DNA from: Escherichia phage ESCO13
Sequence record: NC_047770.1
Length of the DNA: 64,000 nucleotides
Direction: 5' to 3' (one strand)
Shown here: piece after piece, positions 14,859 to 32,475 of the stretch
Layout of the letters: every line of letters begins with the position of its first letter
Position numbering within the stretch: the stretch's first letter is position 1
Made by a program: the position numbers and the translations under genes
Notes under the pieces: generated by a model
What the model saw: the letters and a program-made list of their open reading frames with translations, nothing else
What the model was told of the DNA's origin: nothing
Database searches by the model: none

Positions 14859-15331
14859 TGGCAGATTTAACTACGATCAAAGTTTCTGATCTTACACAAA
14901 CAACCTCTGTGTCTGATACAGATTTCTTTGTAACAGATCAGGCTGGAATAACAAAGAAAACTTCTTTGAAAGTGCTGTTGAGTGGTGCAGGGGTAACTAG
15001 AAACCGTCTGAATGCACGGGGAACAGTAACTAGCACCCTGGCATTAGATATTAGTTCGGCAGAATATTTTTCAGCAACTTTATCTTCTGCAACGTGCACA
15101 ATTAGTTTTACTAATATTCCAGTAGCAACAAATGCAGTTTTAAACTTTACTTTAGCTTTGCGTCAAGGAAGTGGTGCAAATAAAGTCGTATGGCCTTCTT
15201 CTGTAAAATGGAGTTTTGGTCGTTCCCCAGTTTTGAGTTATCGTCAAGGTGCAACAGACACTTTTGAGTTTATCAGTTATGATAATGGAGCAACTTGGAC
15301 AGGTAGCTTAGTTTTAGCAGGAGTTATTTAA
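14858..15331 (+). CDS. Hypothetical baseplate protein
   Basis: 157 aa; start overlaps upstream stop. Confidence 0.4.
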   Translation: MADLTTIKVSDLTQTTSVSDTDFFVTDQAGITKKTSLKVLLSGAGVTRNRLNARGTVTSTLALDISSAEYFSATLSSATCTISFTNIPVATNAVLNFTLALRQGSGANKVVWPSSVKWSFGRSPVLSYRQGATDTFEFISYDNGATWTGSLVLAGVI

Positions 15332-18207
15332 TGTCAAGAGTTAAGCACAATATTGACAACACGTTTCAGTTGATTGAAGGGTTGGTTCAGTTTTTGGAAA
15401 GAAATACTGGGCTTACCATAGATCCTACGGTTCAGCATTACATTATCAACCCACAAAACGTATTGGCGAACAACAGACACTTTATTAACTGGACAGCGCA
15501 GGAAGGGCAACCAAACGGTGACGCTACTACCGAAGGTCAATCTGTGCTTATCACTGGTTTTGCTTATGCATATTTGGCTACAGGGGATAAAAAATATCTT
15601 GAATCTGCCGAGAAGTATTGGCAAGCCTATATAGATCACTTCTTCGGGGGCCAACCTATTCCTGATCCTCCGGCTAAGTATCGTCCCAACTGGATCATCA
15701 ATGGTAAAGAACCACGTTTAGCACATTACCCTCTCACAGATGATGGGTATCCTACGCACGGTGGGTTCAAAGGTAGCATGATGACTTGGATTAACGGAAG
15801 GACTGTTATTCCTAAAGGTGCACCGCATTGGGGAGAATACTTAGATAAAGCTTGGTTTGCTTTCAATGGTAATCTTGGTTGGAACTCCGTTAACGCAACA
15901 GTTTATGCAACTAACCCAGATGGTTCAACTAACTGGAAAGAATATGGAGATCAGTGGGACGTTGAATGGATTATAGATCGTCTAGGACGTAAAGTTGATT
16001 GGGATGGTAACATTTTATCTACAGGGCACAGCTTCGCAGAATATGGAACAGTGCAACTTAAAAATGCTTCTGTGAACGGTGATTATAAATTCAACTACGC
16101 TACATGCAACCCTGTAGAACACGGTGGATATCTGCTTAAGCGTAATGAGATGTGGCATAACCGTCCTGTAAACGTTCCGGTAGAGTTAGGCTATCAAGAT
16201 AATGCTTCCGATGCTGAAACGTGGTGGTGTGATGCAAACTACTTGATGTATCAGATCACAGGAGAGAGAAAATACTGGCTTTGCTGGCAATCTTCTTTAT
16301 TGTTGTGTCAAGACTACTCAAACATCGATATGTTTGATAAATTCTTCCGTAGATCTACGACAGCAATAATTCCTTTTACAGATGGTATCTCGTATGATTA
16401 CTCATACCCATCTACAGCAATACCTAAATATTCTCGTGACGAATTAGGATATACAGTAATTCGCCAAGATGTTTCAGCACAAACAACTCTAGAACAACAG
16501 GCAGTTTGGTTCAGAGTGGATCAGAATTCAAAACTGCGTATTGAGTTTCAAGGTGTAGATGATGCAGGGGAAGGTGTTCTTTTCCGTCCAGAGTTAGAAT
16601 TAAGCAAGACTAAGAGTGAAACAGACACAGTGACATATCGTTGTGGCTTACCTCTTGGTGCAGCTAATATGACTAAGATGGATATACCTTTATCTAGTTT
16701 TATGCGCACCGAACCTCCTGGAGGTGGTGTATATATTATTGCTGAACCTAGAATCATTGTTGACTGGGGAAGCAATACTGTGATACAATATAAATATGCA
16801 ACTGGTATTGCTGGGACAAATAGTGATCAGATAGTTTCTGCTAATATGGATTCAGATGGTGGTTTTACTATTGGATTTTGGTTAACACCAACTAAAACAG
16901 CCAATTTAAAATCTATTACCTATCGTTCATACGCAGATGATTTTAACATCACTATTACGGATTCCGCAGGTTGGAGATGGTGGGCCATGTTAGAAAAAAC
17001 AAATTCTGCATGGGTTACTAAAGCTTTAAGTCCTGCTGATTTCAAATTAAGCACTTGGCAACCTAATCACAATGACACAGAGACAAAACCTTCGTCAATA
17101 AACCTGACTGCTGTTGATCAGATCAACATTGCATTGGATTCTGAACCTGCAAATGGCTTGACAGGGGCAATCGACTTTTATTGCGTTAACGATATCCCAT
17201 CTTTGTATTCTTCAGCCGCTGGTGATGATTACACAATGTATTTCAGGGTTACAGTTTCATCTGAAAATCCTTATACAGCAAAACTTGGAGATTGTACAAT
17301 ACTGGACTACAAACTTGACAGTTTGAATTATACTCCAGGAATCATTCCATTTTCCAATATTAGTGATCCTAACACAGCATTATATGACGGTTGGCGTGGT
17401 ATTCCTTACCCAGGTTATCAATACCCATCCTTATATTGTTTTAAAGGGAGAGATATTGACTGGGTTCGTATGAACAACAGTATAGACTTTTTATATGATT
17501 CACAAATGTGGTTTTATAATAAGTTTGCCCCTGTGATGCCTGGGCCAATGGCACAAGCTTATGTTTGGGATCGTTGGGATGCTCATAAATACGGAAACAA
17601 GAATGAGTTCACAATGTATCATTGGAACGATAAAGCTTGGGATGGTTATGAAGCACGAGCATTCTTCTGTGCATGTCATACAGTATACGAACTGAAACAA
17701 CGAGGAGCAGAAGTTCCTGCAAAACTTTTAACAGTTTGTAAAAACTGGATCAACTATCTGAAATGGTTCCAAGATAACAACGAAGGAAGAACACCAACAA
17801 TATTTTATCCCAATGGAGAAGTGGCTGCGCCTGTAGATGACTTTACAAGTCACATGTCTGCGCTCTTTATGGCGGGATGTGCTATAATGGGGATGGCTGG
17901 ATATGATTCAGAAATTCCTAACATTAGAATAGTAGCAGACCGCTGTTTTGAACTTATTCAGGAAAACTATATTGTTCTTGGTCCTAATCACGTCATGAAT
18001 GGTTGTTGGAGTGCCGCTCCTAGACCAGACAGTGATAACGGAGTCTTCTTTGGCTTCCACGCTGGAGAGTTGTTACGTGGTTTTGGGTTGTATGCTTTAT
18101 ACAAAAAACTTAATCCCCAAAATGCATTACCTGTTTTGGATTCGAGCAATATTCCTGCACTTACTGTTTTGACAATGGCAAACATTAGTGTGGACGTTAC
18201 CGAGTAA
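15331..18207 (+). CDS. Large tail/baseplate protein with a possible carbohydrate-active N-terminal domain
   Basis: 958 aa; N-terminal segment (ITGFAYAYLATGDKKYLESAEKYWQAYIDHFF) is reminiscent of alpha/alpha-toroid glycosidase/lyase folds; speculative. Confidence 0.35.
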   Translation: MSRVKHNIDNTFQLIEGLVQFLERNTGLTIDPTVQHYIINPQNVLANNRHFINWTAQEGQPNGDATTEGQSVLITGFAYAYLATGDKKYLESAEKYWQAYIDHFFGGQPIPDPPAKYRPNWIINGKEPRLAHYPLTDDGYPTHGGFKGSMMTWINGRTVIPKGAPHWGEYLDKAWFAFNGNLGWNSVNATVYATNPDGSTNWKEYGDQWDVEWIIDRLGRKVDWDGNILSTGHSFAEYGTVQLKNASVNGDYKFNYATCNPVEHGGYLLKRNEMWHNRPVNVPVELGYQDNASDAETWWCDANYLMYQITGERKYWLCWQSSLLLCQDYSNIDMFDKFFRRSTTAIIPFTDGISYDYSYPSTAIPKYSRDELGYTVIRQDVSAQTTLEQQAVWFRVDQNSKLRIEFQGVDDAGEGVLFRPELELSKTKSETDTVTYRCGLPLGAANMTKMDIPLSSFMRTEPPGGGVYIIAEPRIIVDWGSNTVIQYKYATGIAGTNSDQIVSANMDSDGGFTIGFWLTPTKTANLKSITYRSYADDFNITITDSAGWRWWAMLEKTNSAWVTKALSPADFKLSTWQPNHNDTETKPSSINLTAVDQINIALDSEPANGLTGAIDFYCVNDIPSLYSSAAGDDYTMYFRVTVSSENPYTAKLGDCTILDYKLDSLNYTPGIIPFSNISDPNTALYDGWRGIPYPGYQYPSLYCFKGRDIDWVRMNNSIDFLYDSQMWFYNKFAPVMPGPMAQAYVWDRWDAHKYGNKNEFTMYHWNDKAWDGYEARAFFCACHTVYELKQRGAEVPAKLLTVCKNWINYLKWFQDNNEGRTPTIFYPNGEVAAPVDDFTSHMSALFMAGCAIMGMAGYDSEIPNIRIVADRCFELIQENYIVLGPNHVMNGCWSAAPRPDSDNGVFFGFHAGELLRGFGLYALYKKLNPQNALPVLDSSNIPALTVLTMANISVDVTE

Positions 18208-18215
18208 GGGGTAAA

Positions 18216-20279
18216 ATGAAACAAGCTATATTTACTGTCACGCGAGACAAGAGAGTAAATGCGAGTTCATTTAACTACACGACTGTTGACGGAACAGCAG
18301 TCGCTGGTAGAGATTATATAGCAAAATCGGGAACACTTGTGTTCCCTGATGATGCTGATTCTGCTACCATTGTGGTTGAAGTATTTGAACGACCAAAGAA
18401 CTCAATAGATCTTAACTTCTCCCTCCAAGTTTCAGGGATTAGTCAAAATAACATGATGGTTGAAACGACCATCAATTGTATTATAACTACTATCCAAGAA
18501 AACACTACTCCAATAACTTGGACTACAAAAGACGTTAAAATGTTCTCTCCTATGTATTGGACAATAGACTCTCAAGCAACGGAAAGTTGTTCTATTGTAT
18601 CTCATGGAGACTCTTTTACTGCAAGATTTGTAAACAGAACAGCAGCAGGTTTGGCAGGGGTTATCTGGAGCACAGTTGACAAATATGATCACAAAGGTGT
18701 TGGGTATTTACCCCACACAGATTTAAGTTCAGAGAAACTTTGGTTTAAAATGGAAATTAGTCAAAACATGCCAGGTTTTAAAGAAGAACCTTTGGTGCCG
18801 ACTTTGACTGTAACTCTCCTGGATAAAAGTGTTCATTATGTCAGTTTAGGATTCTACGCTTCAGATATTTCAGAAGATGGTAAAACAGCCACAATCAAGT
18901 TAGATTTTGGTAATATCTTTTCTGGCCCTAATAATGATATTCCTTTGGATATGAGTGCTGTAGATAATATTTTCTTCTCTTTGATTACAGCAAGGTATGA
19001 AGAAATAGAAGAGATTGTACCTATTGCCAGTCAAGAGGCTTGGTTTACTTTCACTCTTCTTGAACCTACTTCTGGTTACAGTATGATGAAAGTCAGCAAC
19101 CTTGTCCAGCCTGAACATGATATTCGCATGTGCACATCTTATGATGATATGTATAACCTGACTCCAGAGAGAGTTATTTATAATACGTATGCACTAGGTT
19201 ATCGTGGAATGATTAACCATTACAACGGAATGTCTCACTATTATGAGTTCTCATGGAACGGAACATCTTGGGCTTTAAATAGATCTGTTTTCCTGAATCC
19301 GGCTACAGAAGCTTGGCTTAACAGTTTCCATTCTATAGCTAATGAAAATGGCTACACAATAATGAACTCTTTGAGTTTTGAGTTGATGAGCACAGTTTGT
19401 CCTGTAGAATGGGTTCAACATGATTGGAACGATGCTCTTGCAGCAACAGGTTATGAGCCGCCTAGTTATGTGTTATCTCCAACAATTGATGAAGGTATGG
19501 AATATTTGCAAAATGTTATTAACAAAATAGCATCTATTTCTCAAGCTAACAATATTCCAGTCGTCATTCAAATTGGTGAACCTTGGTGGTGGTATAATAC
19601 AGCAAGTAAAATGCCTTGTATATATGATTACACTACCAAACTAGCATTCAATACAGAAACAGGCTTATTTGCACAAGATGCAGGAACAATAGATAATTAT
19701 AAAACAGGAACACCGTTTGACGAATACTATGCATTTTTGTCTCGTAAACTAGGATTAAGAGTTACAAAGTTTGCAACAGACACTAGAGCAACTTATCCAG
19801 GAGCTAAAGTAACATTGCTTCCGTTCTTACCGTCAATTATTGGCAACGGTTTGATGGAGAAAGTTAACTTTCCGTCTGATTACTACATTCCTGAAGCTTT
19901 TGATTTTTACTGTTCAGAGTGTTACGACTGGCTTCTGGAAGGTAAAATGATGAAAGCATTTGATGCAATTACCATACCACATGAAAAATTAGGTTTTGAA
20001 TATTCTGATATTCACTATCTTTCAGGTTTTGTTCCAGATGCTACTCTTGCACCTTTGTATGGCTTCGATCCTGAATCAAACTACCGCACGTATCTTTGGA
20101 AAATGATTATAGGTAATATAGTGTTGAACGCCAATAAGTTCAATGGACTTACACAATATATATGGGCCTATCCTCAAATAATGCACGATTCCATCACGGT
20201 AGTTAATTCTCAATCCCAAGTTTTCTATATGGGTAACGTGCCTTTGAACGTTTATTTACAGGATACAGTATATGCCTAA
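18216..20279 (+). CDS. Tail fibre/adhesin-like protein with N-terminal Calx-beta domain
   Basis: 687 aa; RVNASSFNYTTVDGTAVAGRDYIAKSGTLVFPDDADSATIVVEVF matches the Calx-beta motif (T.DGTA.AG.DY...G.L.F). Confidence 0.45.
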   Translation: MKQAIFTVTRDKRVNASSFNYTTVDGTAVAGRDYIAKSGTLVFPDDADSATIVVEVFERPKNSIDLNFSLQVSGISQNNMMVETTINCIITTIQENTTPITWTTKDVKMFSPMYWTIDSQATESCSIVSHGDSFTARFVNRTAAGLAGVIWSTVDKYDHKGVGYLPHTDLSSEKLWFKMEISQNMPGFKEEPLVPTLTVTLLDKSVHYVSLGFYASDISEDGKTATIKLDFGNIFSGPNNDIPLDMSAVDNIFFSLITARYEEIEEIVPIASQEAWFTFTLLEPTSGYSMMKVSNLVQPEHDIRMCTSYDDMYNLTPERVIYNTYALGYRGMINHYNGMSHYYEFSWNGTSWALNRSVFLNPATEAWLNSFHSIANENGYTIMNSLSFELMSTVCPVEWVQHDWNDALAATGYEPPSYVLSPTIDEGMEYLQNVINKIASISQANNIPVVIQIGEPWWWYNTASKMPCIYDYTTKLAFNTETGLFAQDAGTIDNYKTGTPFDEYYAFLSRKLGLRVTKFATDTRATYPGAKVTLLPFLPSIIGNGLMEKVNFPSDYYIPEAFDFYCSECYDWLLEGKMMKAFDAITIPHEKLGFEYSDIHYLSGFVPDATLAPLYGFDPESNYRTYLWKMIIGNIVLNANKFNGLTQYIWAYPQIMHDSITVVNSQSQVFYMGNVPLNVYLQDTVYA

Positions 20280-20532
20280 AGAAAGTGGTTTTAAAAAATT
20301 TATTCGCGGAATGTTCTGCACTTACCCTGGCAACGGGGTAAGCTCTACAAAAGTCTGGAACGCTGTAGGCATGTCTGTTATGACAGGCATGTTTATCTTT
20401 TTAGGAATAGAAAAAGAAATTCCTGAATGGATGGGTTGGGCTTTTGTTTTCATGATAACTCCTTCTCGCCTCATGAAAAATCTTATTGATTTACGCTGGG
20501 GCAGATCACAATCTACCAAAGAGGATGACTAA
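20272..20532 (+). CDS. Small membrane protein (two predicted TM helices, charged C-terminus)
   Basis: 86 aa; hydrophobic segments VWNAVGMSVMTGMFIFLGI and WMGWAFVFMI; C-terminal RWGRSQSTKEDD; holin-like architecture but inside the tail module. Confidence 0.35.
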   Translation: MPKESGFKKFIRGMFCTYPGNGVSSTKVWNAVGMSVMTGMFIFLGIEKEIPEWMGWAFVFMITPSRLMKNLIDLRWGRSQSTKEDD

Positions 20533-22019
20533 TGGATGAATATGGTTTGACAGATGCGGGATTTGTAATCCCGACTTTTGACGATGTTCTAAACAACTAT
20601 ATGACAGCAGTAAAAAACACATTTGGTGCAGATGCAGCCACTTCGGAAGATACTGTGATCGGACAACTGTTTAGAATAATTGCATACACAGATTACACAT
20701 TGTGGGAAGGTATGCAAGGTGTTTATAATACTCAAACACTAGATGGTGCAGAAGGTATTTATCTTGATGAAATCTTTTCTAAACGCGGTTTCTATCGAGC
20801 AGGGGCAGCAGCAAGTACAGGTTATGCCTATGTTAAGAGTAATAACAAAGCAGCTTGGACTTATGAGTTAGGCACGGATATTTACTTCAACTCTGATAGT
20901 GATATGAACTACTATGTTAGCACACCAACTATGTTGAATGCTAAGATTGCAGCTTATCAAATCTCTCGTGCTAATGCAACTGCTACAGGTGTTCCAAATA
21001 TTACTTTTTATGCACAAAGTGCGGTGGATGGAGGACTAAACAGTAAAACACTTGCACCTGGTTCTTCTACATTTATAACCGATCTTGAAACTTTTATCAA
21101 GGCGAATTTAACAGAAGCTGATCGTAGTCTTGTATTTTCTGATTCAGGTAACTTATCAATTGGTTTTACTTCTTTAACCAGTGATACTCCAGTGGGGCTG
21201 GTAACTCCTATTAAATTTTATGCTAGTGTTCCGGTTGGAACCAAGTGGAGTGAGATTCCGGTAGTTGCAGCAGAGAAAGGATACAATCCTGTTGGTGTGG
21301 AGTCTATTACAGGGATATCTTCTACCTTTACAGGTTATCTTGATAGTGGTAACTTCTATTCATTTTCCCCTGGTCGAGATGTTGAGACAGACGCAGAATT
21401 CCGCTCTCGTTTCAATGACAACGTTGACGAAGCTAACGCAGGGACACGAGCAGCTATTGTGAAAGCTCTGCTACTTACAGATGGTGTTACTAAGGTGAAG
21501 ATTTATGATAACCCTACATTACATGATCAAGAACATGCTCCAGCTATGACTTTCCAGACTATAGTTTATGGTGGCAGTGCAGAAGAAATTGCAAATGTTA
21601 TCTATAAAACCAAACCAATCAACACTTTGACACACGGAACAACAAACATAACAGTTACAACAGAAGATGGAGGACAAGAAATTATTCGCTTCTCTCCTGG
21701 TGCTTCTGTTATGTATTCCGTAAAACTTGTTTATCAAACTGTCAACGGAACAACTTTAAGTGGAACAGAAAAACAAAACATCGTAGAAGCTTTACAAAAC
21801 CTGCAAGCTTACTTTGAGTTAGGTTCTTCAGTAACGAACGATCAAATCAAAGGTGTTATTTATGCAGCACTTGCTTTTGGACGCTTGACTTCTCTTCGTG
21901 TTTATGTTAAACTTAATACTGAGGATGACAGTAAATATACAGAGAATAATATAGTTCCTGCTTATAATGTTGTCCCTTCTTTTGACCTTGATAACATTTC
22001 TTACGAGTATGGAGTGTAA
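20532..22019 (+). CDS. Baseplate J-like protein
   Basis: 495 aa; N-terminal region (LDGAEGIYLDEIFSKRGFYRAGAAASTGYAYV) matches the Baseplate_J pattern; position in the baseplate block. Confidence 0.55.
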   Translation: MDEYGLTDAGFVIPTFDDVLNNYMTAVKNTFGADAATSEDTVIGQLFRIIAYTDYTLWEGMQGVYNTQTLDGAEGIYLDEIFSKRGFYRAGAAASTGYAYVKSNNKAAWTYELGTDIYFNSDSDMNYYVSTPTMLNAKIAAYQISRANATATGVPNITFYAQSAVDGGLNSKTLAPGSSTFITDLETFIKANLTEADRSLVFSDSGNLSIGFTSLTSDTPVGLVTPIKFYASVPVGTKWSEIPVVAAEKGYNPVGVESITGISSTFTGYLDSGNFYSFSPGRDVETDAEFRSRFNDNVDEANAGTRAAIVKALLLTDGVTKVKIYDNPTLHDQEHAPAMTFQTIVYGGSAEEIANVIYKTKPINTLTHGTTNITVTTEDGGQEIIRFSPGASVMYSVKLVYQTVNGTTLSGTEKQNIVEALQNLQAYFELGSSVTNDQIKGVIYAALAFGRLTSLRVYVKLNTEDDSKYTENNIVPAYNVVPSFDLDNISYEYGV

Positions 22020-22021
22020 AA

Positions 22022-22651
22022 ATGGCAGTGAGTGTTGACCATGTAACAACTTGGGCCAGTATCAATGAAGATGTTAAAAACCTTCTGATTGAAGATTTTA
22101 AATCTTCTCCTAACATTGTCAAGCTCCTCTACATCGTATCCAGTGAAAAGCAAAAGATAGATCAGGCAATGATCTATCTTGCTAAACACCGCTTGATCTC
22201 TACAGCCACAGGCAAATACCTAGATATTCTAGGGGAAGAAATGGGGATCGAACGTAATGGCTCTGATGATGAAGAGTATAGAACAATATTAAAAATCAGG
22301 GCTTACCGCGTAGCCTCATCGGGGACTCGTGGTGACATAATTGATATCTTCGCCCGTTTCACAGGAACAGAGCGTGAAACGCTTAATACTTACGTAGGTT
22401 TGAATAAAACCTTTGATGTGTTTTTCTACAACCTGTGTCTTCAATCTGATCAAGCTTTAGAGCAGTTGCTAAGTGTTTTCCCTATTATTAGTAGCTACCG
22501 TCTTGGAGCAAAAGCAGGATCAGCTTTTGGTTTTAGTTCTTATTATGCTACCAAACCGCCTCATGGTATTGGTGGTTTAGGTTCCCTGTACATGGAATCT
22601 ACTGGGGATGAAACAGGACGCATGTGTACGCTTCTCAAGCAAATAGATTAA
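22022..22651 (+). CDS. Baseplate protein, gpI/XkdU-like position
   Basis: 209 aa immediately downstream of the J-like gene. Confidence 0.35.
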   Translation: MAVSVDHVTTWASINEDVKNLLIEDFKSSPNIVKLLYIVSSEKQKIDQAMIYLAKHRLISTATGKYLDILGEEMGIERNGSDDEEYRTILKIRAYRVASSGTRGDIIDIFARFTGTERETLNTYVGLNKTFDVFFYNLCLQSDQALEQLLSVFPIISSYRLGAKAGSAFGFSSYYATKPPHGIGGLGSLYMESTGDETGRMCTLLKQID

Positions 22652-22660: not shown

Positions 22661-23722
22661 ATGGCGAAGCCAATATATTATCCTGACTGGGCTACACAAA
22701 CTGTAACGCTCCCAGGAACTTTAAACACAAACAAAATTAGACCTAAAGAAACCATCCGCACAGTTGGTATGGATTATGGTCAAATCATGACTTGCGAAGA
22801 AATGAACTGGATTCTTAATAATATCGGTTTATGGATTCGCTATTTGGTGGATGACTTTCTTCCAACTTTACCTAATACCTACTTGCCTTTAGTGGGAACT
22901 AAGATTACAATGGCAGGTGATGCTACTGGTGAGGCTACTTGGAACGGTAACAAAGAAGTTACTTTATCTATCCAGGTTCAAGATAACAGTCATAATCACT
23001 TGTCGGCAAACATTACGGATGCCACTAGTTCAACAGTAACACCAAACGTGTTGGTAAAACGTGATGCGGGTGGTGCTATTTATGGTGGTGATGTTTATGT
23101 TAACGGTACTTCCACAACAGATCCTGCAACACTGTTCTTCAAAAACTTTGCAGGACAAACAAATGGTGAGATTTCTGCCGAGTATCAAAGCGGAGGTCAG
23201 CTTTACATCTATCGTAGAAATCCTAGCACAGGCAGTGTATCGGCAGGTGTTCGTTTATATGATGCAGGTTATGTTCTAATAGATAATCCAAGATCAAACA
23301 GTGGACAAGACACTTCTAACGGAAATGCTTTAGTTCGTTTAGATTATCTGAACTCTCGTTTGACTTCCCTTCAGAACACATTGCAGACGAATATTAACAC
23401 TGTTCAAAACAACTTGAATAATGTTAACAACAACCTCTCTTCTCGTATAAACAATGTAGAAAGTAATCATCAAAGTCAGATTACAAATAACTACAACTAT
23501 GCTAACGGAACCTTTGTAAGAGATATTCGTTATACTAGCCAAGGTGTGTATTATCCACCAGGGAACGAGGTTTCTTGGACTTATATCTGTTCTTCTGGTT
23601 ATGTTCTTTCTGGTATTATCGTACAGGAAACAGGACGTAGCTCTGCGGATAACATCGGTGGGGTTTACTTCAAACGCCTCCAGCGCAACGTTAACGGAAA
23701 CTGGTACGATATTGGAGGCTAA
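22661..23722 (+). CDS. Tail fibre protein
   Basis: 353 aa; Asn/Gln-rich heptad segment (LNSRLTSLQNTLQTNINTVQNNLNNVNNNLSSRINNVE) typical of fibre shafts. Confidence 0.45.
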   Translation: MAKPIYYPDWATQTVTLPGTLNTNKIRPKETIRTVGMDYGQIMTCEEMNWILNNIGLWIRYLVDDFLPTLPNTYLPLVGTKITMAGDATGEATWNGNKEVTLSIQVQDNSHNHLSANITDATSSTVTPNVLVKRDAGGAIYGGDVYVNGTSTTDPATLFFKNFAGQTNGEISAEYQSGGQLYIYRRNPSTGSVSAGVRLYDAGYVLIDNPRSNSGQDTSNGNALVRLDYLNSRLTSLQNTLQTNINTVQNNLNNVNNNLSSRINNVESNHQSQITNNYNYANGTFVRDIRYTSQGVYYPPGNEVSWTYICSSGYVLSGIIVQETGRSSADNIGGVYFKRLQRNVNGNWYDIGG

Positions 23723-24277: not shown

Positions 24278-24613
24278 ATGGAATTTCAAGAAGCATGGGG
24301 ACTTGCAAAGGATGCAATAATCCCTTTAATCGGAGTCATCTGGTTCTTTTTCAAACAAAAAATGGATAAATTCGGCTCTGATCTTGAGGAAATGGAGGAG
24401 AAAAGTCGAGAGCTAGAGAAGAAGTTGGTCTTTGTTGAATCAACTTATGCAACTAAAGCCGAACTTACCCAGATGCTAAATCAAATTAACTCTACATTAA
24501 TGGCAAATAATAACACCCTTGAGCAAAAAATTGAAAAGATTATGGACCTCAAGAATGCGACTATCCAAATGATGCTAGATGACATAGTTAAACGTACACA
24601 GAATAAGGGGTAA
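24278..24613 (+). CDS. Membrane-anchored coiled-coil protein (i-spanin- or holin-like architecture)
   Basis: 111 aa; N-terminal TM segment AIIPLIGVIWFFF followed by a charged helical region. Confidence 0.3.
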   Translation: MEFQEAWGLAKDAIIPLIGVIWFFFKQKMDKFGSDLEEMEEKSRELEKKLVFVESTYATKAELTQMLNQINSTLMANNNTLEQKIEKIMDLKNATIQMMLDDIVKRTQNKG

Positions 24614-24616: not shown

Positions 24617-27600
24617 ATGGCAACATTCCCAACATATCCAGCAACGTCTCTCGAACAGGGCGTAGACCTGGTTATTTTCTCATCTAACCAACTCCATGAT
24701 GTTATTAATGGAAGTGCTACAGAGAGTATTGAAACAGAATCAGGGTTGATACCAACCCTGAGAAAAGCCCTTGTTGACAACTTTTTCTTTAAAAGCCCAT
24801 TGGATTGGGCGCAAGGCACAAACGAAACAGTTTTTAACCAACTACGTTATTTTCAGAATGGGGTATTGAGCGGTTATTATTATGCTCCTAATGCTACACT
24901 GGTAAACCCAATTCCTATGCAAGGGACTCCAGTAGGAGATAACAACTGGGTATTGTGGGGACTGAAGACAGAACAACTAGCAACAGAAGTCACCCCGTGG
25001 GTATACTCTGGTGCAACGGGTTATGAAACAGTAATTAGTCCTCCTTACATCTTTGATAGTGCTATTGTTACGATCAATGGTGTTATTCAGGTTCTGGGGG
25101 AAGCTTTCCGTATAGAAGATAGTAAGATCATCTTATCTGAACCTTTGGGACACGATCCTGCAACAGGACTACCAAACAAGCTTTTTGCTTATATTGGTAA
25201 AATCGTAGCTTCAGCAGATACAGATCCTAATCTAGAGAACCGTCTTGTTAGTTTAGAAACAAAAACGGAAGAACTAACAGAAAGCATGGATAAAGTCCCT
25301 CTGCAAACTATTGCTCGTAAATATGGTTTGTTAGATGACGAGGTGGCTTACGCAACAGCAGGTCAATCGTTAACAGGGATTAAAGCTCTGTATGATCCAG
25401 TAGCACAGTCTTCCTACACATTACCTCCTAACATCACAGGAACTTTAACATCCTTGTCTGTTTCTGGAGTAATGACTTATTCTGGGGGGTCTGTAGATCT
25501 TTCTGCACTAGCTGTTGAACGTGGACAGTTTGTTCATTTGCCTACAAGCTTTGGTAATAACGTAACTCTGACAGCTAAAAATCAGACGATTGGACGTGGT
25601 GCTGGTCGTTATCGTTGGGCTGGAAGTTTACCAAAAAGTATTTTGGCCTCCGATACATTGGAGACAAGCGGTGGATTAGGTCCAAATGCATGGGTTCTGA
25701 CCAATACAGAAGGACTGTTAACCCCTCGTGGTGGAACATACAACGATTTATTCGATGTTGTCTACTTGTCAGAATTTGCTAACAACACAACAACATATAC
25801 CACACCAGAAGCAGCTTTCCAAGCGGCACTGTTAGCAGCAAAAGCTTCGAAAAGCAAGATTCTCGATGCTTACGGTTGCGATATGACTTTCACGACAAGC
25901 TCTTTTGATATTCAAGGTATCACTTTGCGTGGGGGTGTGTTCCGTGGTCAACGCGACTATCGTGTGCAAAATGCTACAGTAGAAGGCACAACTTTCCGTA
26001 ACTCTCGTGTTATGTATTGGGGTGGTGCTGTGCGCATGTTCGATTGTTTGTGGGACGGTGCTCCTCGCGCAGGTCAAGTTGGTAGCTTGGTATTCCAAGG
26101 CAACCCAATATCAGGTACTTTTGAAATTGATAACTGTACTTTTAAAAACGGGTTGTATGGCATCCTTCAACAAGGAACAGGGGAACCAGTAACACATGGT
26201 GTCTTCCGTAACCTTACCTTCATGGACATGCAAGGTGATGCAATAGAACTGAACGTCATCAATAAACATTATGACGATGGTTGTGTGATTGAGAATATTT
26301 ACCTGTCTAATATCGATGGGACTAACGCTCCTATTCCTCTGTCCAACTGGGGTATCGGTATCGGTGTAGCTGGTAAAGGACCATATGGTTACGGAATACC
26401 TGATGATCAATATTGCAAGAATATTACAATTCGTAACGTTTTTGCAAAACGTTGTCGTCAGATTGTCCACGTAGAAGTTGGTCGTAATATCTCTATCGAA
26501 AACATTCATGGCGATCCAGACCAAACTGTATCTGTTGGGACAGGTTTGGCAACTGGCGCAGTTGTAATGTATGGAAGTAAAGACTTTACGATTGATGGTG
26601 TTTATGGAGAGCCTAAAACAGACGGTAGCACACTTGCAAGTAATATCCGTATGATTTATTTGGAGTGGGGAACTAACGCAGTTCTGGACGAAGAGGGTAA
26701 TCCGGTAGTTCCGGCACAGGGTAGACCTTCAAATCCATGCTTTAACTATTCTGTTCGTAACATTCACACCAAAACTGGGCGTGTTTTTGCGGGAGTTTCC
26801 GCTGGGCCAGGTTATGAAAACAGAGTTAGCTTTGAAAATATTCGTTGCGCCGCATTGCAGTTGTTCGGTATAGCTTCTTGGCTTTCAATGTCTAACATCA
26901 CCTGTAATATCTTCGATTGTGTTGGTCAACCTGAATCTGGTCCAGGGACATTTTATGATGGATTCTTCCGTAGAGAAAAATCTGTTCTTGAAATGGTTAA
27001 CGTAAACTGTTACCCAGATGGCAAGACGATGGTTACTGGTCGTCCACAGTGGAGCCGTTGCCGTTACTCGGATATTCATCGTGTCAACTGTAATGTTGAA
27101 GCTAATATGTATACCAATATCGCAGGTGGTATTGGAGCTATTGTAGGGACAACGGGCAAAGTTTATTACTTAGAGCCTAATCCTAGTCGAAACATTGATG
27201 GAATGCATTTCCCAACGGGGAAAGAGTTTGACAAAGGGGATATGATAGTCAAGGCGGATAATACGTTCTTCCTTGTAACAACAAGTGGGGCATATATTCC
27301 AGATATCCCAGCTTTCGGTATTCGAGCTACACAGGCAGGAGATACCTTCCTGACACAGAACTTGACTCCTAACGGGACAGCAACAAATGCTTCTTGGTTG
27401 TATCATTACCCTCTGTCAGCAGGGACACGTATCCGTATTCCTGGTGCTGGTGTAGGTGGAGCAGATTTGGACACAGTTATTACTCGTGCACCTTATCAAG
27501 ATAATGATACGTGGACTAACCCAGTTAAAATAGACATTGCAGATCCAATTGTAACGCCTACAAGTGCTGGAGTTAGAATTAAAACCATACCTAATGATTC

Positions 27601-27670
27601 CAGTAATGTTTCTGTAGGTAATACTGCGGTTATTCGCCCAACGCCAGTAGTAGATGTGCCAACAACCTAA
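24617..27670 (+). CDS. Tailspike with beta-helix (pectin-lyase-like) depolymerase domain
   Basis: 1017 aa; recurring short beta-rung motifs (FRNLTFMDMQGDAIEL, ENIYLSNIDG, NITIRNVF, NISIENIHG, YSVRNIHT, VSFENIRC, SNITCNIF) typical of parallel beta-helices. Confidence 0.5.
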   Translation: MATFPTYPATSLEQGVDLVIFSSNQLHDVINGSATESIETESGLIPTLRKALVDNFFFKSPLDWAQGTNETVFNQLRYFQNGVLSGYYYAPNATLVNPIPMQGTPVGDNNWVLWGLKTEQLATEVTPWVYSGATGYETVISPPYIFDSAIVTINGVIQVLGEAFRIEDSKIILSEPLGHDPATGLPNKLFAYIGKIVASADTDPNLENRLVSLETKTEELTESMDKVPLQTIARKYGLLDDEVAYATAGQSLTGIKALYDPVAQSSYTLPPNITGTLTSLSVSGVMTYSGGSVDLSALAVERGQFVHLPTSFGNNVTLTAKNQTIGRGAGRYRWAGSLPKSILASDTLETSGGLGPNAWVLTNTEGLLTPRGGTYNDLFDVVYLSEFANNTTTYTTPEAAFQAALLAAKASKSKILDAYGCDMTFTTSSFDIQGITLRGGVFRGQRDYRVQNATVEGTTFRNSRVMYWGGAVRMFDCLWDGAPRAGQVGSLVFQGNPISGTFEIDNCTFKNGLYGILQQGTGEPVTHGVFRNLTFMDMQGDAIELNVINKHYDDGCVIENIYLSNIDGTNAPIPLSNWGIGIGVAGKGPYGYGIPDDQYCKNITIRNVFAKRCRQIVHVEVGRNISIENIHGDPDQTVSVGTGLATGAVVMYGSKDFTIDGVYGEPKTDGSTLASNIRMIYLEWGTNAVLDEEGNPVVPAQGRPSNPCFNYSVRNIHTKTGRVFAGVSAGPGYENRVSFENIRCAALQLFGIASWLSMSNITCNIFDCVGQPESGPGTFYDGFFRREKSVLEMVNVNCYPDGKTMVTGRPQWSRCRYSDIHRVNCNVEANMYTNIAGGIGAIVGTTGKVYYLEPNPSRNIDGMHFPTGKEFDKGDMIVKADNTFFLVTTSGAYIPDIPAFGIRATQAGDTFLTQNLTPNGTATNASWLYHYPLSAGTRIRIPGAGVGGADLDTVITRAPYQDNDTWTNPVKIDIADPIVTPTSAGVRIKTIPNDSSNVSVGNTAVIRPTPVVDVPTT

Positions 27671-27676
27671 TGGAAT

Positions 27677-27697
27677 AGAGGGGGGGATTCCCCCTCT
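27677..27697 (+). terminator. GC hairpin after the tailspike gene (weak U tract)
   Basis: AGAGGGGG-GGATT-CCCCCTCT followed by TCTTCC. Confidence 0.3.
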
Positions 27698-27733
27698 TCT
27701 TCCAATAGAATGGTCTAATGATAGGAGAGATAA

Positions 27734-29758
27734 ATGAATTTAACAAGACCTAATAGTGCGATAGCCGATCTGGTAGAAGCTACTTATCGAAAACGTCGCA
27801 GCTTTGAGGCAGGTTTTACATTACGTAATTCCCGTGAAGTTTTGCTGTTAGCAGCAGAAGGGAATTATTACCAATGGAAAGGAACTTTTCCTAAAGTAGT
27901 TCCAGCAAACTCTACGCCAGCCACCACAGGTGGTATTTCTTCCCTTGCATGGCAAAATGTTGGGACCGCTGATGATATAGCAATTATCAATGCCAAGTTT
28001 ACGGCAGTGCAACAACAGATTAATGATTTGTCAGAAGCAATACCTGAAGCTGGTAAATCGGCTTATCAGATCGCACTTGATAATGGTTTTGTTGGAACAG
28101 AAGCCCAGTGGCTTGCTTCTTTGAAAGGAGATACTGGTGCTCAACTTAATATTAAGGGATCATTAGCAAGCACTAGTGAACTACCATCTACAGGTAACAT
28201 CGCAGGAGATGGTTATATCGTAGGTGATGTGATTTACGCTTGGGATGGTTCTGTTTGGAAACTTATTTCTTCTCTTGGACCAGAAGGGAAATCAGCTTAT
28301 GAGGTATGGTTGGCAGATGGTAATACAGGATCTGTTTATGACTTTCTTACCTCTATAAAAGGTGATAAAGGTGATGTTGGTCCTACAGGGCCACAGGGAG
28401 CACCTGGTGTTAACGCCAACGGTTTTGATTATCGTGGGGATTTACCTTCTACAAGTAACTTACCACAACCTAACTCTGAAAACGTAAGCCAAGCTTATTC
28501 TATCAATGGTAATCTTTATGTCTCTAATGGGACAGCTTGGGTCAACATGGGTAATATTGTTGGTCCTCAAGGTCCACAAGGTGAGGCAGGTAAAGACGGT
28601 CTTGATGGAACAGATGGAGATGAAGGGAAATCTGCATATCAAAGTTGGCTGGATGCTGGTAATGAAGGGACAGAAGTAGATTTTATTGCCTCACTTAAAG
28701 GTCCAAAAGGAGACAAGGGTGATCAAGGAGAGCGAGGTCCACAAGGTGAACTAGGTCCACAAGGACCAGTGGGTGCAACAGGATCAGGCTTAGAGATTAT
28801 CGGGGTTCTGAACAGTGAAGCTGAACTTCCTCCTACTGGAGAAGTAGGTGACGCATATAAAATTAATAATGATTTATATGTTTGGGTCCAAGATGCTACG
28901 GAATGGATGAATGTTGGCAGTCTTGGAGGAACATCAATTACAGCTAAAGGTCATGTTCCGAACAGTGAAGCTCTCCCTGTTTACAATAACTATGGTGATG
29001 CTTACTTAACTGAAGACACTAGTAATCTTTACATCTATACCTACGATCAAGACACCAATTCCGCATCTTTTGTTGACATGGGAAGTATTAAAGGCGACAA
29101 AGGTGAAAAAGGGGATAAAGGAGATAAGGGTGATCCTGGAACAAACGGAACCAACGGTACTGATGGGACCAACGGTAAGGATGGCGCACAGTGGTTTGTA
29201 GCAACAACTAATCCAGTCACAGGAGACGGTGTTATCAATGATTACGCCTTCAATACTACCACTGGAGCAGTGTTTAAGAAAACAGATTCTTCTACGTGGA
29301 CGCTTATAGGCACTCTTCCTAGTATACCAGAAGCCCCTCAAGACGGCTTGACGTATGGTCGGTCTGATGGAAACTGGATCGAAATATCAGGATCAGATCC
29401 TACGGAAGCTATAACACCAACTAGAGTTACAGCAGGTTTCATGGAACTTGAAACAACTACTGCCAACTCTGGAGCATCTTGGACTCCTTCTGGAACTTCC
29501 AATATGTATGTTGTTACAGTAACTGATGCTCTGACAGTTGGAGCATGGCCTGGTGTCACTGGCTCTACAAAACCTAAAGCATTTTCAGCAATGATTTATT
29601 TGATTCAAGATACAACGGGACACACGGTTACACTAGATGCGTCTTATGGAGCACTAAATGATACAGAAATAGCAACTACTGCTAACGCAGTAACAATTTT
29701 GCAATTAACGTATCCTGGTGTGGGTGATATCGTGGACATGGTTGTTGTAACACGATAA
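27734..29758 (+). CDS. Collagen-like repeat tail fibre
   Basis: 674 aa; several Gly-X-Y runs (GDKGDVGPTGPQGAPG; GPQGPQGEAGKDGLDGTDGDEG; GPKGDKGDQGERGPQGELGPQGPVGATG; KGDKGEKGDKGDKGDPGTNGTNGTDGTNGKDG) and three copies of a GKSAY..WL..GN.G...DF..S.KG module. Confidence 0.7.
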   Translation: MNLTRPNSAIADLVEATYRKRRSFEAGFTLRNSREVLLLAAEGNYYQWKGTFPKVVPANSTPATTGGISSLAWQNVGTADDIAIINAKFTAVQQQINDLSEAIPEAGKSAYQIALDNGFVGTEAQWLASLKGDTGAQLNIKGSLASTSELPSTGNIAGDGYIVGDVIYAWDGSVWKLISSLGPEGKSAYEVWLADGNTGSVYDFLTSIKGDKGDVGPTGPQGAPGVNANGFDYRGDLPSTSNLPQPNSENVSQAYSINGNLYVSNGTAWVNMGNIVGPQGPQGEAGKDGLDGTDGDEGKSAYQSWLDAGNEGTEVDFIASLKGPKGDKGDQGERGPQGELGPQGPVGATGSGLEIIGVLNSEAELPPTGEVGDAYKINNDLYVWVQDATEWMNVGSLGGTSITAKGHVPNSEALPVYNNYGDAYLTEDTSNLYIYTYDQDTNSASFVDMGSIKGDKGEKGDKGDKGDPGTNGTNGTDGTNGKDGAQWFVATTNPVTGDGVINDYAFNTTTGAVFKKTDSSTWTLIGTLPSIPEAPQDGLTYGRSDGNWIEISGSDPTEAITPTRVTAGFMELETTTANSGASWTPSGTSNMYVVTVTDALTVGAWPGVTGSTKPKAFSAMIYLIQDTTGHTVTLDASYGALNDTEIATTANAVTILQLTYPGVGDIVDMVVVTR

Positions 29759-29761
29759 CAG

Positions 29762-29786
29762 AAGCCCCGAAAGGGGCTTTCTTTTT
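29762..29786 (+). terminator. Rho-independent terminator after the collagen-like fibre
   Basis: AAGCCCC-GAAA-GGGGCTT followed by TCTTTTT. Confidence 0.65.
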
Positions 29787-29799
29787 ATGGAGGGTTTAA

Positions 29800-32475
29800 A
29801 TGTTTCCAATTCCAATATTTACTATTATGACCAGCACTGGTGTCGTTCCTCTGCCAGCAGGTATTGTTAAAAAAGTAATCACTTTAGATTACCCAGATAA
29901 CGCTGGTAATTCTAACAGCAGTTTAGCAATTTTGCTTAATGATGGTAGATTGTTTACTCAAGGCGCAAACCTCTTTGGTGAGATTGCAGATGGAACTCGT
30001 AGTGCACGATTCAATAATTTCCACTTAGCTTCTACTGTAGTAGCGGATGTGTTTACCGCAGATCGTTGTTTTGTTATTAAAACTAACAGTGGGGGATGGC
30101 AATATTCAGGATTGACAGCAGGGTTGGTAGGATCTATAGCAGCAGGTGGTACGGATGCATGTGTAACTACCTGGACCAGCTTTCCATCTGTAATAACAGG
30201 GACTATTTCTTTAGCCAATCTTAAAGAGGTTAAAGGAGGGTATAACAATACTCTCTGGTTAATGAATAGTGGTGTTCTTTATGGATCGGGTCAAAACACA
30301 GTAGGTAGTTTAGGTGCAAGCACTACTAACGAAGTTTCTACTCCTCGTCAGATAACAAGCGCAGCAGTTGCTTTTGATGCAGGTTACAACCAATGCTCTT
30401 ATGTCAACAATGTGGGAACCTTGCGTGTTTGTGGAGCTAGTAAAGGTTTAGCAGGTAATAATAACACAACAACAGCTTTTGTCAATGCCACAATATCCAC
30501 TACTGAAACAGTGTATGTCAAAGATTACATCAATACAGTTTCCCAGACAATAGTTGTAGGAGATACCTCCGGTGGCACGGGTACAGTAAACTACTTATAT
30601 GTTAGATCTAATACAGAAACAACCTACACTAAACTGGATACCTTTGCAGCAGGTTTCTCAACATGGAAGTTTCCACCAAGCCGCCACTCTTTTTTCGTTG
30701 GGATCAATAATTCCTTGTGGGCTATTGGTAAGAACTACACTGCAAACTTAGGTTTGGGGTATGATTCTGCGAGCGGAGATCCACTCCAAGTGGGAAAACC
30801 AGTTAAACCTGAAGGAGTGGGTTCTTGGGATATAAACAAGCTCACAAGCGTTCATACGCTGAATATGGATGTTACTAACCAATTAGGTTATCAAGGAACC
30901 TTTTTCGTTTATAATGGAGATATGTATTATTCCGGTATTTGGAAAGATGGGAAAGCCTCGTATCTGTTCAATAGTGGTCTAAACTATAATAAATTCACAC
31001 CAATAGCAAGCTCCGTGATTACGGGCGATATTCTGGCAACAGGCTTAACTACAGATTCTTTAGGAATTTGTATTGTAGGTGGAACTAAACAGTTGACACA
31101 TTCTGTTAGCCCAGAAGGAGGCAAACTTTTCAATATTAAATACACTTCTTCTGCCCCTGCAAACATGACAATATCATCTACTGGTTTAATGACTTTCCAT
31201 GCAGAAGGTGGTTTTGATGCAGGTATGACAGCCTTAAACGCTGAAGGAACAACTTTATCAGATACCTCTGGAGGATATGCTTCAACATTGAGTGTTTACA
31301 CCCCTAGCTTATCTGCGATGGATGTAGGAACAACACAAACAATGGTAGCAGAAATAACGCCAACAGGAGCAGCAAGCTTACCTGGTATGGTTGTTGAGTA
31401 TTTCTCTAATGACCCTACGGTAGCAACAGTTGACCCCGTTACAGGCGTTATTACAGCGGTTGCTGATGGAGGTTGTCGTATCGGTTGTAGAGCAACTTAT
31501 CAAGGTGTGGTAACTGCCGAAGATAGTTCTTATCTCACAGTGAATGCTGTGGTGATTGTGATGGATTATGATTTGACGCAAGAAACTATTCCGGCGGATG
31601 TAAAGGTCAACAGGAGTAACCGTTATGCCAGGGCTTCTGGAGATATCCTTGTACCTACAGAGAGTTCTGCTCCCGTAGCACCTTTAGAATATGTTGGTAC
31701 AACTCCACAAGGTAGACGTGTTGTAGCAGCCAACCGTACACATATCTTTATCAACAATAACTTGACAACAGCTTCCCCGTGGTTGAAGACGAACTTGACA
31801 GTCACGGCATCAACAATCAACTCTCCGGTTGGAACTACAGCTAACACTTACAAGTTAACACCTTCTACAACTTCAGGACAACATATTTTATCAGCAGTGA
31901 ATACAGCTTCTGATATTACAGCAGGTAAGCACTGGGCGGCATCCGTATTCTTGAAGCCAGACGGGATCACTAAAGTGAAACTCAAATTGACTTCAGGAGA
32001 TGAGATTAACGAAGGGACTTATGATCTTGTAGCTGGAACATTTACAGGTGCAGATGCAAACATAATCGATATGGGGAATGGTTGGTATCGTGTAATTCTA
32101 CACAAAGTGACAGTTGCCAAACAAGCATCTATAACCTATGAGATTATAGCTTTGAATGCAAGTGGATCAGACACTTTCGCAGGAGATGGTACGGCAGGTC
32201 TTATTGCTTGGGTTCCACAGCTTGAGATGGGTGATATGACAAATCCAGTTTGGGCTGGGACACCATTTGTTTGTTCTTATGCACGAGACACTACCAGTGC
32301 TGTTACCTTCACTATTCCTAAGAATGGACATACTGGCGTGGACATTTACCACACTGATGGTACTGTGCAACGAGAGGTCTTCACTGGTACAGCTACAACT
32401 TGGATGTTGACGTTCACCGCCGCAAGTGCGGATTGGGGATCGAAGTTCATTACAGGTTTGAAATATTACGACTAA
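29800..32475 (+). CDS. Tail fibre/receptor-binding protein with Big_2 (bacterial Ig-like) domain
   Basis: 891 aa; segment YFSNDPTVATVDPVTGVITAVADGG...LTVNAV matches the Big_2 pattern. Confidence 0.5.
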   Translation: MFPIPIFTIMTSTGVVPLPAGIVKKVITLDYPDNAGNSNSSLAILLNDGRLFTQGANLFGEIADGTRSARFNNFHLASTVVADVFTADRCFVIKTNSGGWQYSGLTAGLVGSIAAGGTDACVTTWTSFPSVITGTISLANLKEVKGGYNNTLWLMNSGVLYGSGQNTVGSLGASTTNEVSTPRQITSAAVAFDAGYNQCSYVNNVGTLRVCGASKGLAGNNNTTTAFVNATISTTETVYVKDYINTVSQTIVVGDTSGGTGTVNYLYVRSNTETTYTKLDTFAAGFSTWKFPPSRHSFFVGINNSLWAIGKNYTANLGLGYDSASGDPLQVGKPVKPEGVGSWDINKLTSVHTLNMDVTNQLGYQGTFFVYNGDMYYSGIWKDGKASYLFNSGLNYNKFTPIASSVITGDILATGLTTDSLGICIVGGTKQLTHSVSPEGGKLFNIKYTSSAPANMTISSTGLMTFHAEGGFDAGMTALNAEGTTLSDTSGGYASTLSVYTPSLSAMDVGTTQTMVAEITPTGAASLPGMVVEYFSNDPTVATVDPVTGVITAVADGGCRIGCRATYQGVVTAEDSSYLTVNAVVIVMDYDLTQETIPADVKVNRSNRYARASGDILVPTESSAPVAPLEYVGTTPQGRRVVAANRTHIFINNNLTTASPWLKTNLTVTASTINSPVGTTANTYKLTPSTTSGQHILSAVNTASDITAGKHWAASVFLKPDGITKVKLKLTSGDEINEGTYDLVAGTFTGADANIIDMGNGWYRVILHKVTVAKQASITYEIIALNASGSDTFAGDGTAGLIAWVPQLEMGDMTNPVWAGTPFVCSYARDTTSAVTFTIPKNGHTGVDIYHTDGTVQREVFTGTATTWMLTFTAASADWGSKFITGLKYYD

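Follow-up and report, generated by a model that had tools for sequence, protein, structure and literature searches.

A probable multivalent host-recognition module with an empty tailspike slot in the phAPEC8-like Escherichia phage ESCO13

What are the very large genes that close the structural operon of Escherichia phage ESCO13, and how many of them serve to recognise the host? The window analysed here is a stretch of 64,000 nucleotides of this genome (NC_047770.1), and the locus in question occupies positions 15331-32475 of its plus strand. A first-pass annotation had proposed at least five large fibre or spike proteins with different domains, directed at several receptors. Homology, fold, genomic context and the literature on phages of the phi92 and phAPEC8 types support this proposal: the region is very probably the baseplate-periphery and host-recognition module of a multivalent apparatus already described as a "Swiss army knife", in which two wedge proteins stand amid six host-recognition proteins and domains are exchanged at their boundaries. 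The six large open reading frames (ORFs) of that annotation are present with exactly the coordinates and lengths it gave, and nearly all of its domain calls are borne out by Pfam, PHROG and PDB matches. By homology, the six are the proteins of 958, 687, 353 (with a chaperone of 181), 1017, 674 and 891 amino acids (aa):

15331..18207, plus strand: 958-aa protein, homologue of phi92 gp141, a discontinuous (α/α)6 toroid with β inserts
18216..20279, plus strand: 687-aa protein, homologue of phi92 gp142, with Calx-β (residues 4-82), NCTSP_N (107-292) and the NCTSP TIM barrel (299-658)
20266..20271, no strand: empty tailspike slot, the junction where relatives carry an extension and a tailspike gene (2.0-3.4 kb)
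22661..23722, plus strand: 353-aa short tail fibre, homologue of phi92 gp147 (fibre III), PHROG 4465 (E 3.4e-108)
23723..24268, plus strand: 181-aa tail fibre assembly chaperone (Caudo_TAP), PF02413 (E 3.2e-13)
24617..27670, plus strand: 1017-aa tailspike, homologue of phi92 gp150, a four-part mosaic of anchor, N-terminal modules and colanidase body
27734..29758, plus strand: 674-aa collagen-like fibre, homologue of phi92 gp151, with Tail_spike_N (12-77), Gly-X-Y runs and a C-terminal knob (559-674)
29800..32475, plus strand: 891-aa protein with a seven-bladed RCC1-like β-propeller (about 20-400), two Ig-like Big_2 domains (410-582), a flexible linker and an exchangeable tip (585-891)

Nucleotide identity and synteny place the window in a phAPEC8-like myovirus of the genus Phapecoctavirus (Stephanstirmvirinae). 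Three records (Ro121lw, phAPEC8_ev052 and Schickermooser) are 99.1% identical to the region at the nucleotide level across its full 17.1 kb, the remaining 22 among the 25 Phapecoctavirus records that match best are 95.9-98.9% identical, and at least 80% of the region is covered in 65 records. phAPEC8_ev052 is 100% identical across a 6-kb sub-region of the window; the notion that it is an "evolved" phAPEC8 minus its endosialidase was not used, as no paper on it could be found and neither host nor source is given in its record. The structural operon runs on the plus strand, and the module has, with phi92-type synteny, the baseplate spike genes on one side and on the other the replication module, with which the operon converges at about 32.5 kb. 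The gene order matches gp140-gp151 of phi92 one by one, at 60-88% protein identity, the exceptions being gp143 and the 891-aa gene. Thus mapped, the proteins of 157, 958, 687 and 86 aa correspond to gp140, gp141, gp142 and gp144; those of 495, 209, 353 and 181 aa to gp145, gp146, gp147 and gp148; and those of 111, 1017 and 674 aa to gp149, gp150 and gp151. A search of the window for tRNA genes returned none.

The 1017-aa protein (PHROG 6117, E 2.3e-282) begins with a baseplate anchor (approximately residues 1-116/215), continues with modules of the Ackermannviridae and G7C type, including Tail_spike_N (128-370), and ends with a body at about 430-1000. Each part has relatives of its own. Residues 10-114 are common to rV5-like fibres (43-46% among the records listed). 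Residues 128-370 are common to Ackermannviridae and G7C; within and around them, 226-399 match the modules of CBA120 TSP1/3/4 and G7C gp63.1 (E 1e-26 to 1e-30), and PF18668 (Tail_spike_N) is found at 302-361. Residues 433-1000 are common to the colanidases of 41-kb phages, at up to 52% identity. Residues 426-1000 match the crystal structure of phi92 gp150 (PDB structure: 6e0v, E 4.1e-80), to which the protein is 33% identical over 455-1002, with about 150 extra residues in the middle of the chain. By this homology of its catalytic body to the solved gp150, the 1017-aa protein is predicted to be a colanidase tailspike. The gene is nearly invariant within the genus, 59 records having at least 99% identity.

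Klebsiella phage FBKp34, another of the Stephanstirmvirinae, carries, at positions 20492-24091 of its locus, a 161-aa gene and a single 1199-aa spike in place of the 1017-, 674- and 891-aa set. This spike has an endosialidase-type chaperone domain at its end and shares only the N-terminal anchor with the 1017-aa protein (61% identity, residues 4-116). The FBKp34 set is a minimal version of the adsorption apparatus.

The 687-aa protein combines a Calx-β domain (Pfam, E 8.6e-11) with two domains known from the tail of phage N4. The Pfam models of NCTSP_N (PF23844, 60.1 bits, E 2.1e-16) and of the TIM barrel (PF23845, 266.7 bits, E 3.8e-79) both pass their gathering cut-off, which is 27 for each, and do so in order along the chain. 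In PDB structure 9lc0, the protein matches N4 Gp64 (E 7.6e-30) and gp65 (E 2.6e-12), chains M and I; of these two, which pair as a heterodimer in N4, gp65 is that phage's receptor-binding protein. In the literature, the homologues of N4, Vequintavirinae and phi92-like phages are called "glycan deacetylase tailspikes" and are genetically tied to wecB/nfrB, that is, to the NGR glycan. The 687-aa protein is accordingly classed, from its domains, as a putative N4 gp64/gp65-like "glycan deacetylase" receptor-binding protein.

Just at the end of this gene lies a polymorphic site that the first-pass annotation had missed, and that is empty in the window. In phAPEC8 and phi92, the gp142-like proteins end in a nearly identical 34-residue extension (ITLKQVNV...QKFYI), after which a tailspike gene follows. 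The 687-aa protein is a short allele that ends in ...LQDTVYA and lacks this tailspike-docking extension; its counterpart in the phi92-like phage PATM ends in ...LQDTVYVSS and is likewise not followed by a tailspike. Compared with phAPEC8, the slot is a precise indel of 2,926 bp: window positions 19900-20265 align with 5570-5935 of the phAPEC8 locus, and 20272-20700 with 8862-9293. With a 6-kb query centred on the junction, the empty allele was seen in 13 of about 47 distinct genus members among the matches listed, the window included, and the remaining listed members have inserts of at least 12 sizes, from about 2,014 to 3,388 bp. The slot tailspikes that were examined are an endosialidase in phAPEC8, a spike of the G7C gp63.1 type in SKA64 and, in ECO340P1, a 536-aa protein with no annotation; all have a nearly identical 54-residue N-terminus and diverge beyond it. 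The phAPEC8 endosialidase is 96.9% identical to phi92 gp143, against no more than 75-83% for the flanking genes, a sign of recent inter-genus transfer. The slot after the 687-aa gene is the most polymorphic site of the locus.

The short tail fibre and its chaperone tell a similar story of exchange. The arrangement is that of a Mu gpS/P2 gpH-type short fibre with a Tfa chaperone: a Caudo_TAP gene stands next to the fibre gene, and the tip of the fibre (residues 286-353) matches a solved short tail fibre (PDB structure: 9cuy_c, E 5e-23). Relative to phi92, the shaft (1-267) is conserved and the tip (268-353) exchanged, and the 181-aa chaperone has 24% identity or no match at all in phi92-like phages, with neighbours at 75-88%. 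Between genera, the chaperone has been exchanged together with the short-fibre tip. For phi92 gp147, which is fibre III, a role in stable adsorption and as the trigger of contraction has been proposed (PMC13450770).

The last two genes encode proteins of quite different architecture. In the 674-aa protein, an N-terminal PF18668 domain (12-77, E 1.9e-19) is followed by collagen-like sequence (PF01391, E 3.3e-12) with four Gly-X-Y runs of 6-11 triplets each (210-227, 277-300, 323-352 and 454-486), and by a C-terminus that matches PDB structure 9cuy_g and is 51% identical to rV5-like lateral fibres. The tip of the 891-aa protein (585-891) matches the distal domain of the Sf11 tail fibre gp17 (E 1.5e-20) and the head-spike fibre of RcGTA (E 3e-14). 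Its allele boundary is sharp: the protein of phage tuntematon is 97.8% identical before residue 584/585 and unrelated after it, and this boundary coincides with a low-confidence linker of the structure model. Other alleles of this type have DUF285 domains, and the phi92-like phage PATM has the same tip (63% identity) on a different N-terminal scaffold. In phi92 itself, gp152 (202 aa) and gp153 (295 aa) are 97% and 92% identical to fragments of a single 939-aa PATM gene (21321-22983 of the phi92 locus compared with 22486-25305 of the PATM locus), so that the phi92 copy is evidently broken and lacks the C-terminal tip domain. The G+C fraction is 0.42-0.43 in the last three receptor-binding genes (26001-32000) and 0.38-0.39 in the preceding baseplate genes (16-24 kb), which is consistent with acquisition of these genes, whole or in part, from elsewhere.

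The 958-aa protein is the most enigmatic member of the set. Its helices (2-104, 293-330 and 699-927) make up an (α/α)6 toroid, interrupted by β inserts at 146-258 and 354-677, the latter CBM11-like. At the level of the fold, this is the (α/α)6 barrel of glycoside hydrolase family 8 (GH8) and clan GH-M, and consensus motifs of the family look GH8-like at sight. Profile evidence for GH8 membership is nil: a Pfam search with the whole protein and with the inserts removed gave as its best match a sub-threshold GH127 (E 0.018), hhalign of the 27-sequence family profile against E. coli BcsZ gave a probability of 0.1%, and a profile search of the PDB with the family found nothing. Since neither Pfam nor profiles support membership, the protein is not filed as GH8 and only the statement about the fold is kept. 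By conservation alone, the family has invariant or near-invariant acidic residues (D64, E68, D294, E296, D336, D750 and E913), along with many aromatic ones, and its motifs TTEGQS and NA(A/S)DAE stand at helix starts.

The distribution of this family is very broad. The 532 phage records with a full-length homologue (32-55% identity, about 940 aa) include rV5-like and jumbo phages, phages of the Rosemountvirus and FelixO1/phiEa104 types, and podoviruses of 40-42 kb. In the T7-like Yersinia phage phiR8-01, the homologue occupies the tail-fibre position, behind a 269-aa adaptor-type protein. A probable homologue, ORF17 of phage S144 (111 kDa), has been found in virions by mass spectrometry; its authors did not act on an HHpred prediction of "hydrolase". 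FBKp34 lacks both the 958- and the 687-aa genes, yet its wedge, short fibre and chaperone are intact, and phiWec179 lacks the 687-aa gene. The absence from FBKp34, the slot in phiR8-01, the presence in the S144 virion and the spread over 532 records together argue that the 958-aa protein is an appendage and not a building block of the baseplate.

Three natural fusions suggest where this appendage sits. In a P2-like gpV-gpW-gpJ-gpI operon, the P2 gpI wedge domain is fused N-terminally to a 958-type protein; in an SU10-like podovirus, NCTSP_N and the TIM barrel of the 687-aa type are fused C-terminally to one; and some metagenomic homologues (about 1620 aa; P0092 and relatives) continue into roughly 650 more residues, made up of repetitive fibre and a Gly_rich_2 domain. 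Other phages, therefore, also use the toroid module as the base from which a long fibre extends. From the fusions we infer a chain that leads from a gpI-type wedge subunit to the 958-aa protein and on to the 687-aa protein. The 958-aa protein is a candidate for a glycan-binding or glycan-cleaving proximal arm. In a recent cryo-electron microscopy study of phi92 (Chen et al., 2026, PMC13450770), gp141 and gp142 go unmentioned, and neither the arm of fibre I nor any part of fibre II is assigned to a protein; proteins of the gp141 and gp142 types are strong candidates for these densities. A bolder version of the idea can be put forward only tentatively: the 958-aa protein would be an active, virion-borne (α/α)6 glycanase or lectin of a new family, directed at a conserved Gram-negative glycan and transferable among P2-like, rV5/phi92-like, jumbo, T7-like and SU10-like tails, and with the gp142-like protein as its partner it would make up fibre II and/or the arm of fibre I in phi92, in a chain from gpI through gp141 and gp142 to an exchangeable tailspike.

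Put together, these elements suggest the following apparatus. The 958-aa protein would dock on the gpI-type wedge subunit, with the 687-aa protein distal to it, and in relatives the 34-residue C-terminal extension of the 687-type protein would hold one of many interchangeable tailspikes by way of the shared 54-residue N-terminus. The colanidase would be anchored by its conserved N-terminal domain, its Ackermannviridae/G7C-type modules might carry one more protein, and a Tail_spike_N docking domain that may match is present in the 674-aa fibre. To extrapolate from relatives, the enzymes would clear or bind surface glycans (colanic acid and the NGR glycan), and the short fibre may bind the lipopolysaccharide core and trigger contraction.

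The other genes of the locus are smaller, and include the true baseplate components:

14858..15331, plus strand: 157-aa protein, a putative small fibre or knob, 84% identical to phi92 gp140, just upstream of the locus
20272..20532, plus strand: 86-aa homologue of phi92 gp144, predicted to have two transmembrane segments, its ATG overlapping the stop codon of the 687-aa gene
20532..22019, plus strand: 495-aa baseplate wedge protein (Baseplate_J, Pfam E 5.1e-8, PHROG 6), homologue of phi92 gp145
22022..22651, plus strand: 209-aa baseplate wedge protein (DUF2612), homologue of phi92 gp146, a true baseplate component
24278..24613, plus strand: 111-aa protein, homologue of phi92 gp149, with an N-terminal hydrophobic segment and then a coiled coil

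The genuine baseplate parts are small and medium-sized ORFs, namely the hub (E217_GP41 domain), the central spike and the Baseplate_J and DUF2612 proteins of 495 and 209 aa, and the phi92 study (PMC13450770) places proteins of these types in the baseplate. The outcome that would have spoken against the first-pass annotation, with most of its large proteins proving to be structural baseplate parts devoid of binding or enzymatic domains, is thus not what is seen. The same study lists gp140 among candidate fibre proteins and proposes a likeness between it and the knob of the collagen-like fibre; the 157-aa protein matches no Pfam family, and BLASTP found no significant similarity between it and the knob at the C-terminus of the 674-aa fibre (E 0.21). 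The ATG of the 86-aa gene marks the right-hand edge of the tailspike slot, and a membrane protein is unexpected amid virion genes. The 111-aa protein has no cysteine and so cannot be a lipoprotein, despite being labelled as one in phAPEC8, Schickermooser and phi92; its gene is kept directly upstream of the colanidase position, even in FBKp34 (34% identity).

How does the diversity of the locus arise? The first-pass annotation had placed terminators near 29762 and 32481, and hairpins do exist at both places, along with a weaker one upstream:

27680..27693, plus strand: weak G+C-rich hairpin after the 1017-aa gene, annotated as a terminator in Schickermooser
29761..29780, plus strand: hairpin with an 8-bp stem, GAAA loop and T-run, the ribosome-binding site and ATG of the 891-aa gene directly next to it; a probable attenuator
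32479..32506, no strand: strong hairpin with an 11-bp stem, an A-run on one side and a T-run on the other, lying between convergent genes; a bidirectional terminator at the end of the structural operon

The terminators had been read as the limits of independent late units that are exchanged as cassettes. Hairpins follow all of the last three genes, are conserved in relatives (where terminators are annotated at these positions), and the higher G+C fraction there would fit separate acquisition; we nonetheless hold this reading to be quite unlikely. The gaps before the 674- and 891-aa genes (63 and 41 nt) consist only of a hairpin, a T-run and a ribosome-binding site, leaving no room for a promoter, and a scan for sigma-70 promoters found 51 sites against 50.5 expected from shuffles, i.e., no signal. 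The hairpins are therefore more probably attenuators than the ends of independent units; most likely, those after the 1017-, 674- and 891-aa genes tune read-through and hence protein dosage. Modular exchange itself is real, as comparison of relatives makes clear, but every mapped breakpoint lies inside a gene: at about residue 267 of the 353-aa fibre, at about 116/215 and 455 of the 1017-aa spike, and at 584/585 of the 891-aa protein. None coincides with a terminator, and the 1017-aa gene as a whole is nearly invariant in the genus. Diversity seems, rather, to come from recombination at boundaries between domains, with conserved sequence on either side.

How many of the large proteins take part in recognition may also be questioned. 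The 958- and 687-aa proteins could be structural scaffold arms of the baseplate periphery with degenerate enzyme-like folds, which would reduce the receptor-binding set from six to four. The 958-aa family is highly conserved at constant length, unlike a typical variable receptor-binding protein, with 43-55% identity across very different hosts and no variable tip; it belongs to no glycoside hydrolase family at the sequence level; its fusion to the gpI wedge domain suggests a proximal, structural position; and the 687-type protein serves as a tailspike carrier in relatives. We find this unlikely all the same: related phages that retain the baseplate can do without either gene, a T7-like podovirus has the 958-aa homologue as the one large protein of its tail-fibre slot, the 687-aa homologues are linked to the NGR glycan by genetics and to receptor binding by N4 gp65, and the 687-aa protein is retained intact in the absence of any tailspike in the window and in 12 other genus members. 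About as unlikely, in our estimate, is that the 891-aa protein, and possibly the 674-aa one, decorates the head, neck or whiskers as a non-specific adsorption aid, so that the tail-borne arsenal is smaller. The C-terminal domains of both also resemble head-spike proteins, the RcGTA match of the 891-aa tip being one example; PHROG matches of the 891-aa protein include "structural protein with Ig domain, head and packaging"; phi92 gp151 and gp140 are likened to gp52, the head spike of phage Pa223 (PMC13450770); and phi92 displays three fibre sets despite its broken 891-like gene. Set against this, the best solved match of the 891-aa tip is the Sf11 tail fibre, both genes stand at the end of the tail and baseplate operon, the 674-aa protein has a tailspike-type docking domain at its N-terminus, and the 891-aa tip is exchanged between otherwise 98%-identical phages, as expected of a host-range determinant.

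Several further points weigh against the module of six host-recognition proteins as drawn here. The receptor has not been experimentally identified in this genus (Vitt 2024), and the genetics of NGR and wecB come from Vequintavirinae and phi92-like phages, not from Phapecoctavirus. The virion positions of the 958-, 687-, 674- and 891-aa proteins are tentative; the phi92 paper (PMC13450770) could not identify fibre II and makes no mention of gp141 and gp142. The assembly order from wedge to 958-aa to 687-aa protein follows from Rosetta-stone logic only, and read-through at the hairpins is deduced from spacing. We still judge the multivalent host-recognition module to be the best account of the locus by far.

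The multivalent adsorption apparatus of phi92 was reportedly described by Schwarzer et al. in 2012. According to the paper on the BASEL collection, Vequintavirinae as well as the related phAPEC8- and phi92-like phages encode three lateral fibre sets, co-expressed and with many glycan-active domains (a "Swiss army knife" on the nanoscale), and it is called unclear there which fibre is the product of which gene; several fibre sets on one virion have been seen by cryo-electron microscopy, in phi92 only (PMC13450770). In a 2025 paper, the same genes appear under names such as TfpL, TfpM1 and TfpM2. As the apparatus has been published (for phi92, in the BASEL collection and in Vitt 2024) and the window is nearly identical to deposited genomes, the finding is already known in its main lines. 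The arsenal, first called unusually rich, is so by comparison with most phages; within the subfamily it is the norm, and with its tailspike slot empty this genome is in fact a reduced member of the group. What remains of interest is the uncharacterised and widespread gp141-type toroid protein, the assembly order derived from fusions, and the empty, engineerable slot.

The host range of the group is among the broadest of coliphages, with AV125 forming plaques on 84 of 198 E. coli strains producing extended-spectrum β-lactamase (ESBL) or AmpC; this breadth, for which the locus is the likely reason, makes these phages attractive for therapy and biocontrol. Because its slot is empty, the phage of the window should lack, for example, the K1/K92-capsule specificity of phAPEC8. 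By the same token, the slot is a natural landing pad for engineering, into which the 34-residue extension and a tailspike with the shared 54-residue N-terminus could be placed, and the exact domain boundaries of natural module swaps are now mapped.

Some deposited relatives have unexpected hosts. MG065650 (Campylobacter phage B15), OP562383 (Acinetobacter phage ABPW7) and MH252123 (Klebsiella phage ZCKP1) are 96-99% identical to E. coli Phapecoctavirus at the receptor-binding locus, and MG065639 (A150), deposited among phages of hosts other than E. coli, has a phi92-like allele of the wedge protein. This suggests mis-assigned hosts, coliphage contamination or a remarkable host range.

The closest well-studied relative of the module is that of phi92 (Justusliebigvirus), which has the same wedge, short fibre (fibre III), colanidase, collagen-like fibre and gp141- and gp142-like proteins. 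The window, however, has neither the endosialidase gp143 nor the docking extension found on gp142; its colanidase is longer by about 150 residues with Tail_spike_N-type modules, its catalytic body only 33% identical; its short-fibre tip and chaperone are other alleles; and its propeller-Ig-tip gene of 891 aa is intact, whereas phi92 holds only the fragments gp152 and gp153. phAPEC8 and most other Phapecoctavirus genomes carry a tailspike after their 687/717-aa gene, where the slot of the window is empty.

The individual proteins resemble parts of other known systems. With N4 gp64/gp65 (PDB structures: 9LC0 and 9YF4), the 687-aa protein shares the TIM barrel of gp64, the N-terminal domain of gp65 and both NCTSP models; unlike them, it is a single polypeptide with an added Calx-β domain, belongs to a contractile-tailed phage, and lacks domains D9-D10 of gp65, which gate the N4 tail. 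Enzymes with the (α/α)6 fold (GH8, GH76, GH105/GH88 and AGE-type epimerases) are 9-14% identical to the 958-aa protein, with no Pfam or profile match, and its toroid, unlike those of these carbohydrate-active enzymes, is interrupted by two large β inserts. Branched complexes such as CBA120 TSP1-4 and G7C gp63.1/gp66 use the same types of N-terminal module as the 1017-aa spike, and the Tail_spike_N docking domain recurs in the 674-aa fibre. The slot tailspikes of relatives combine conserved anchors with variable bodies, as do those of Ackermannviridae and G7C and the adaptor-plus-tailspike systems of K1-5 and K1E, but their carrier is the C-terminal peptide of an N4-sheath-like protein and not a protein of the TSP4/gp66 type.

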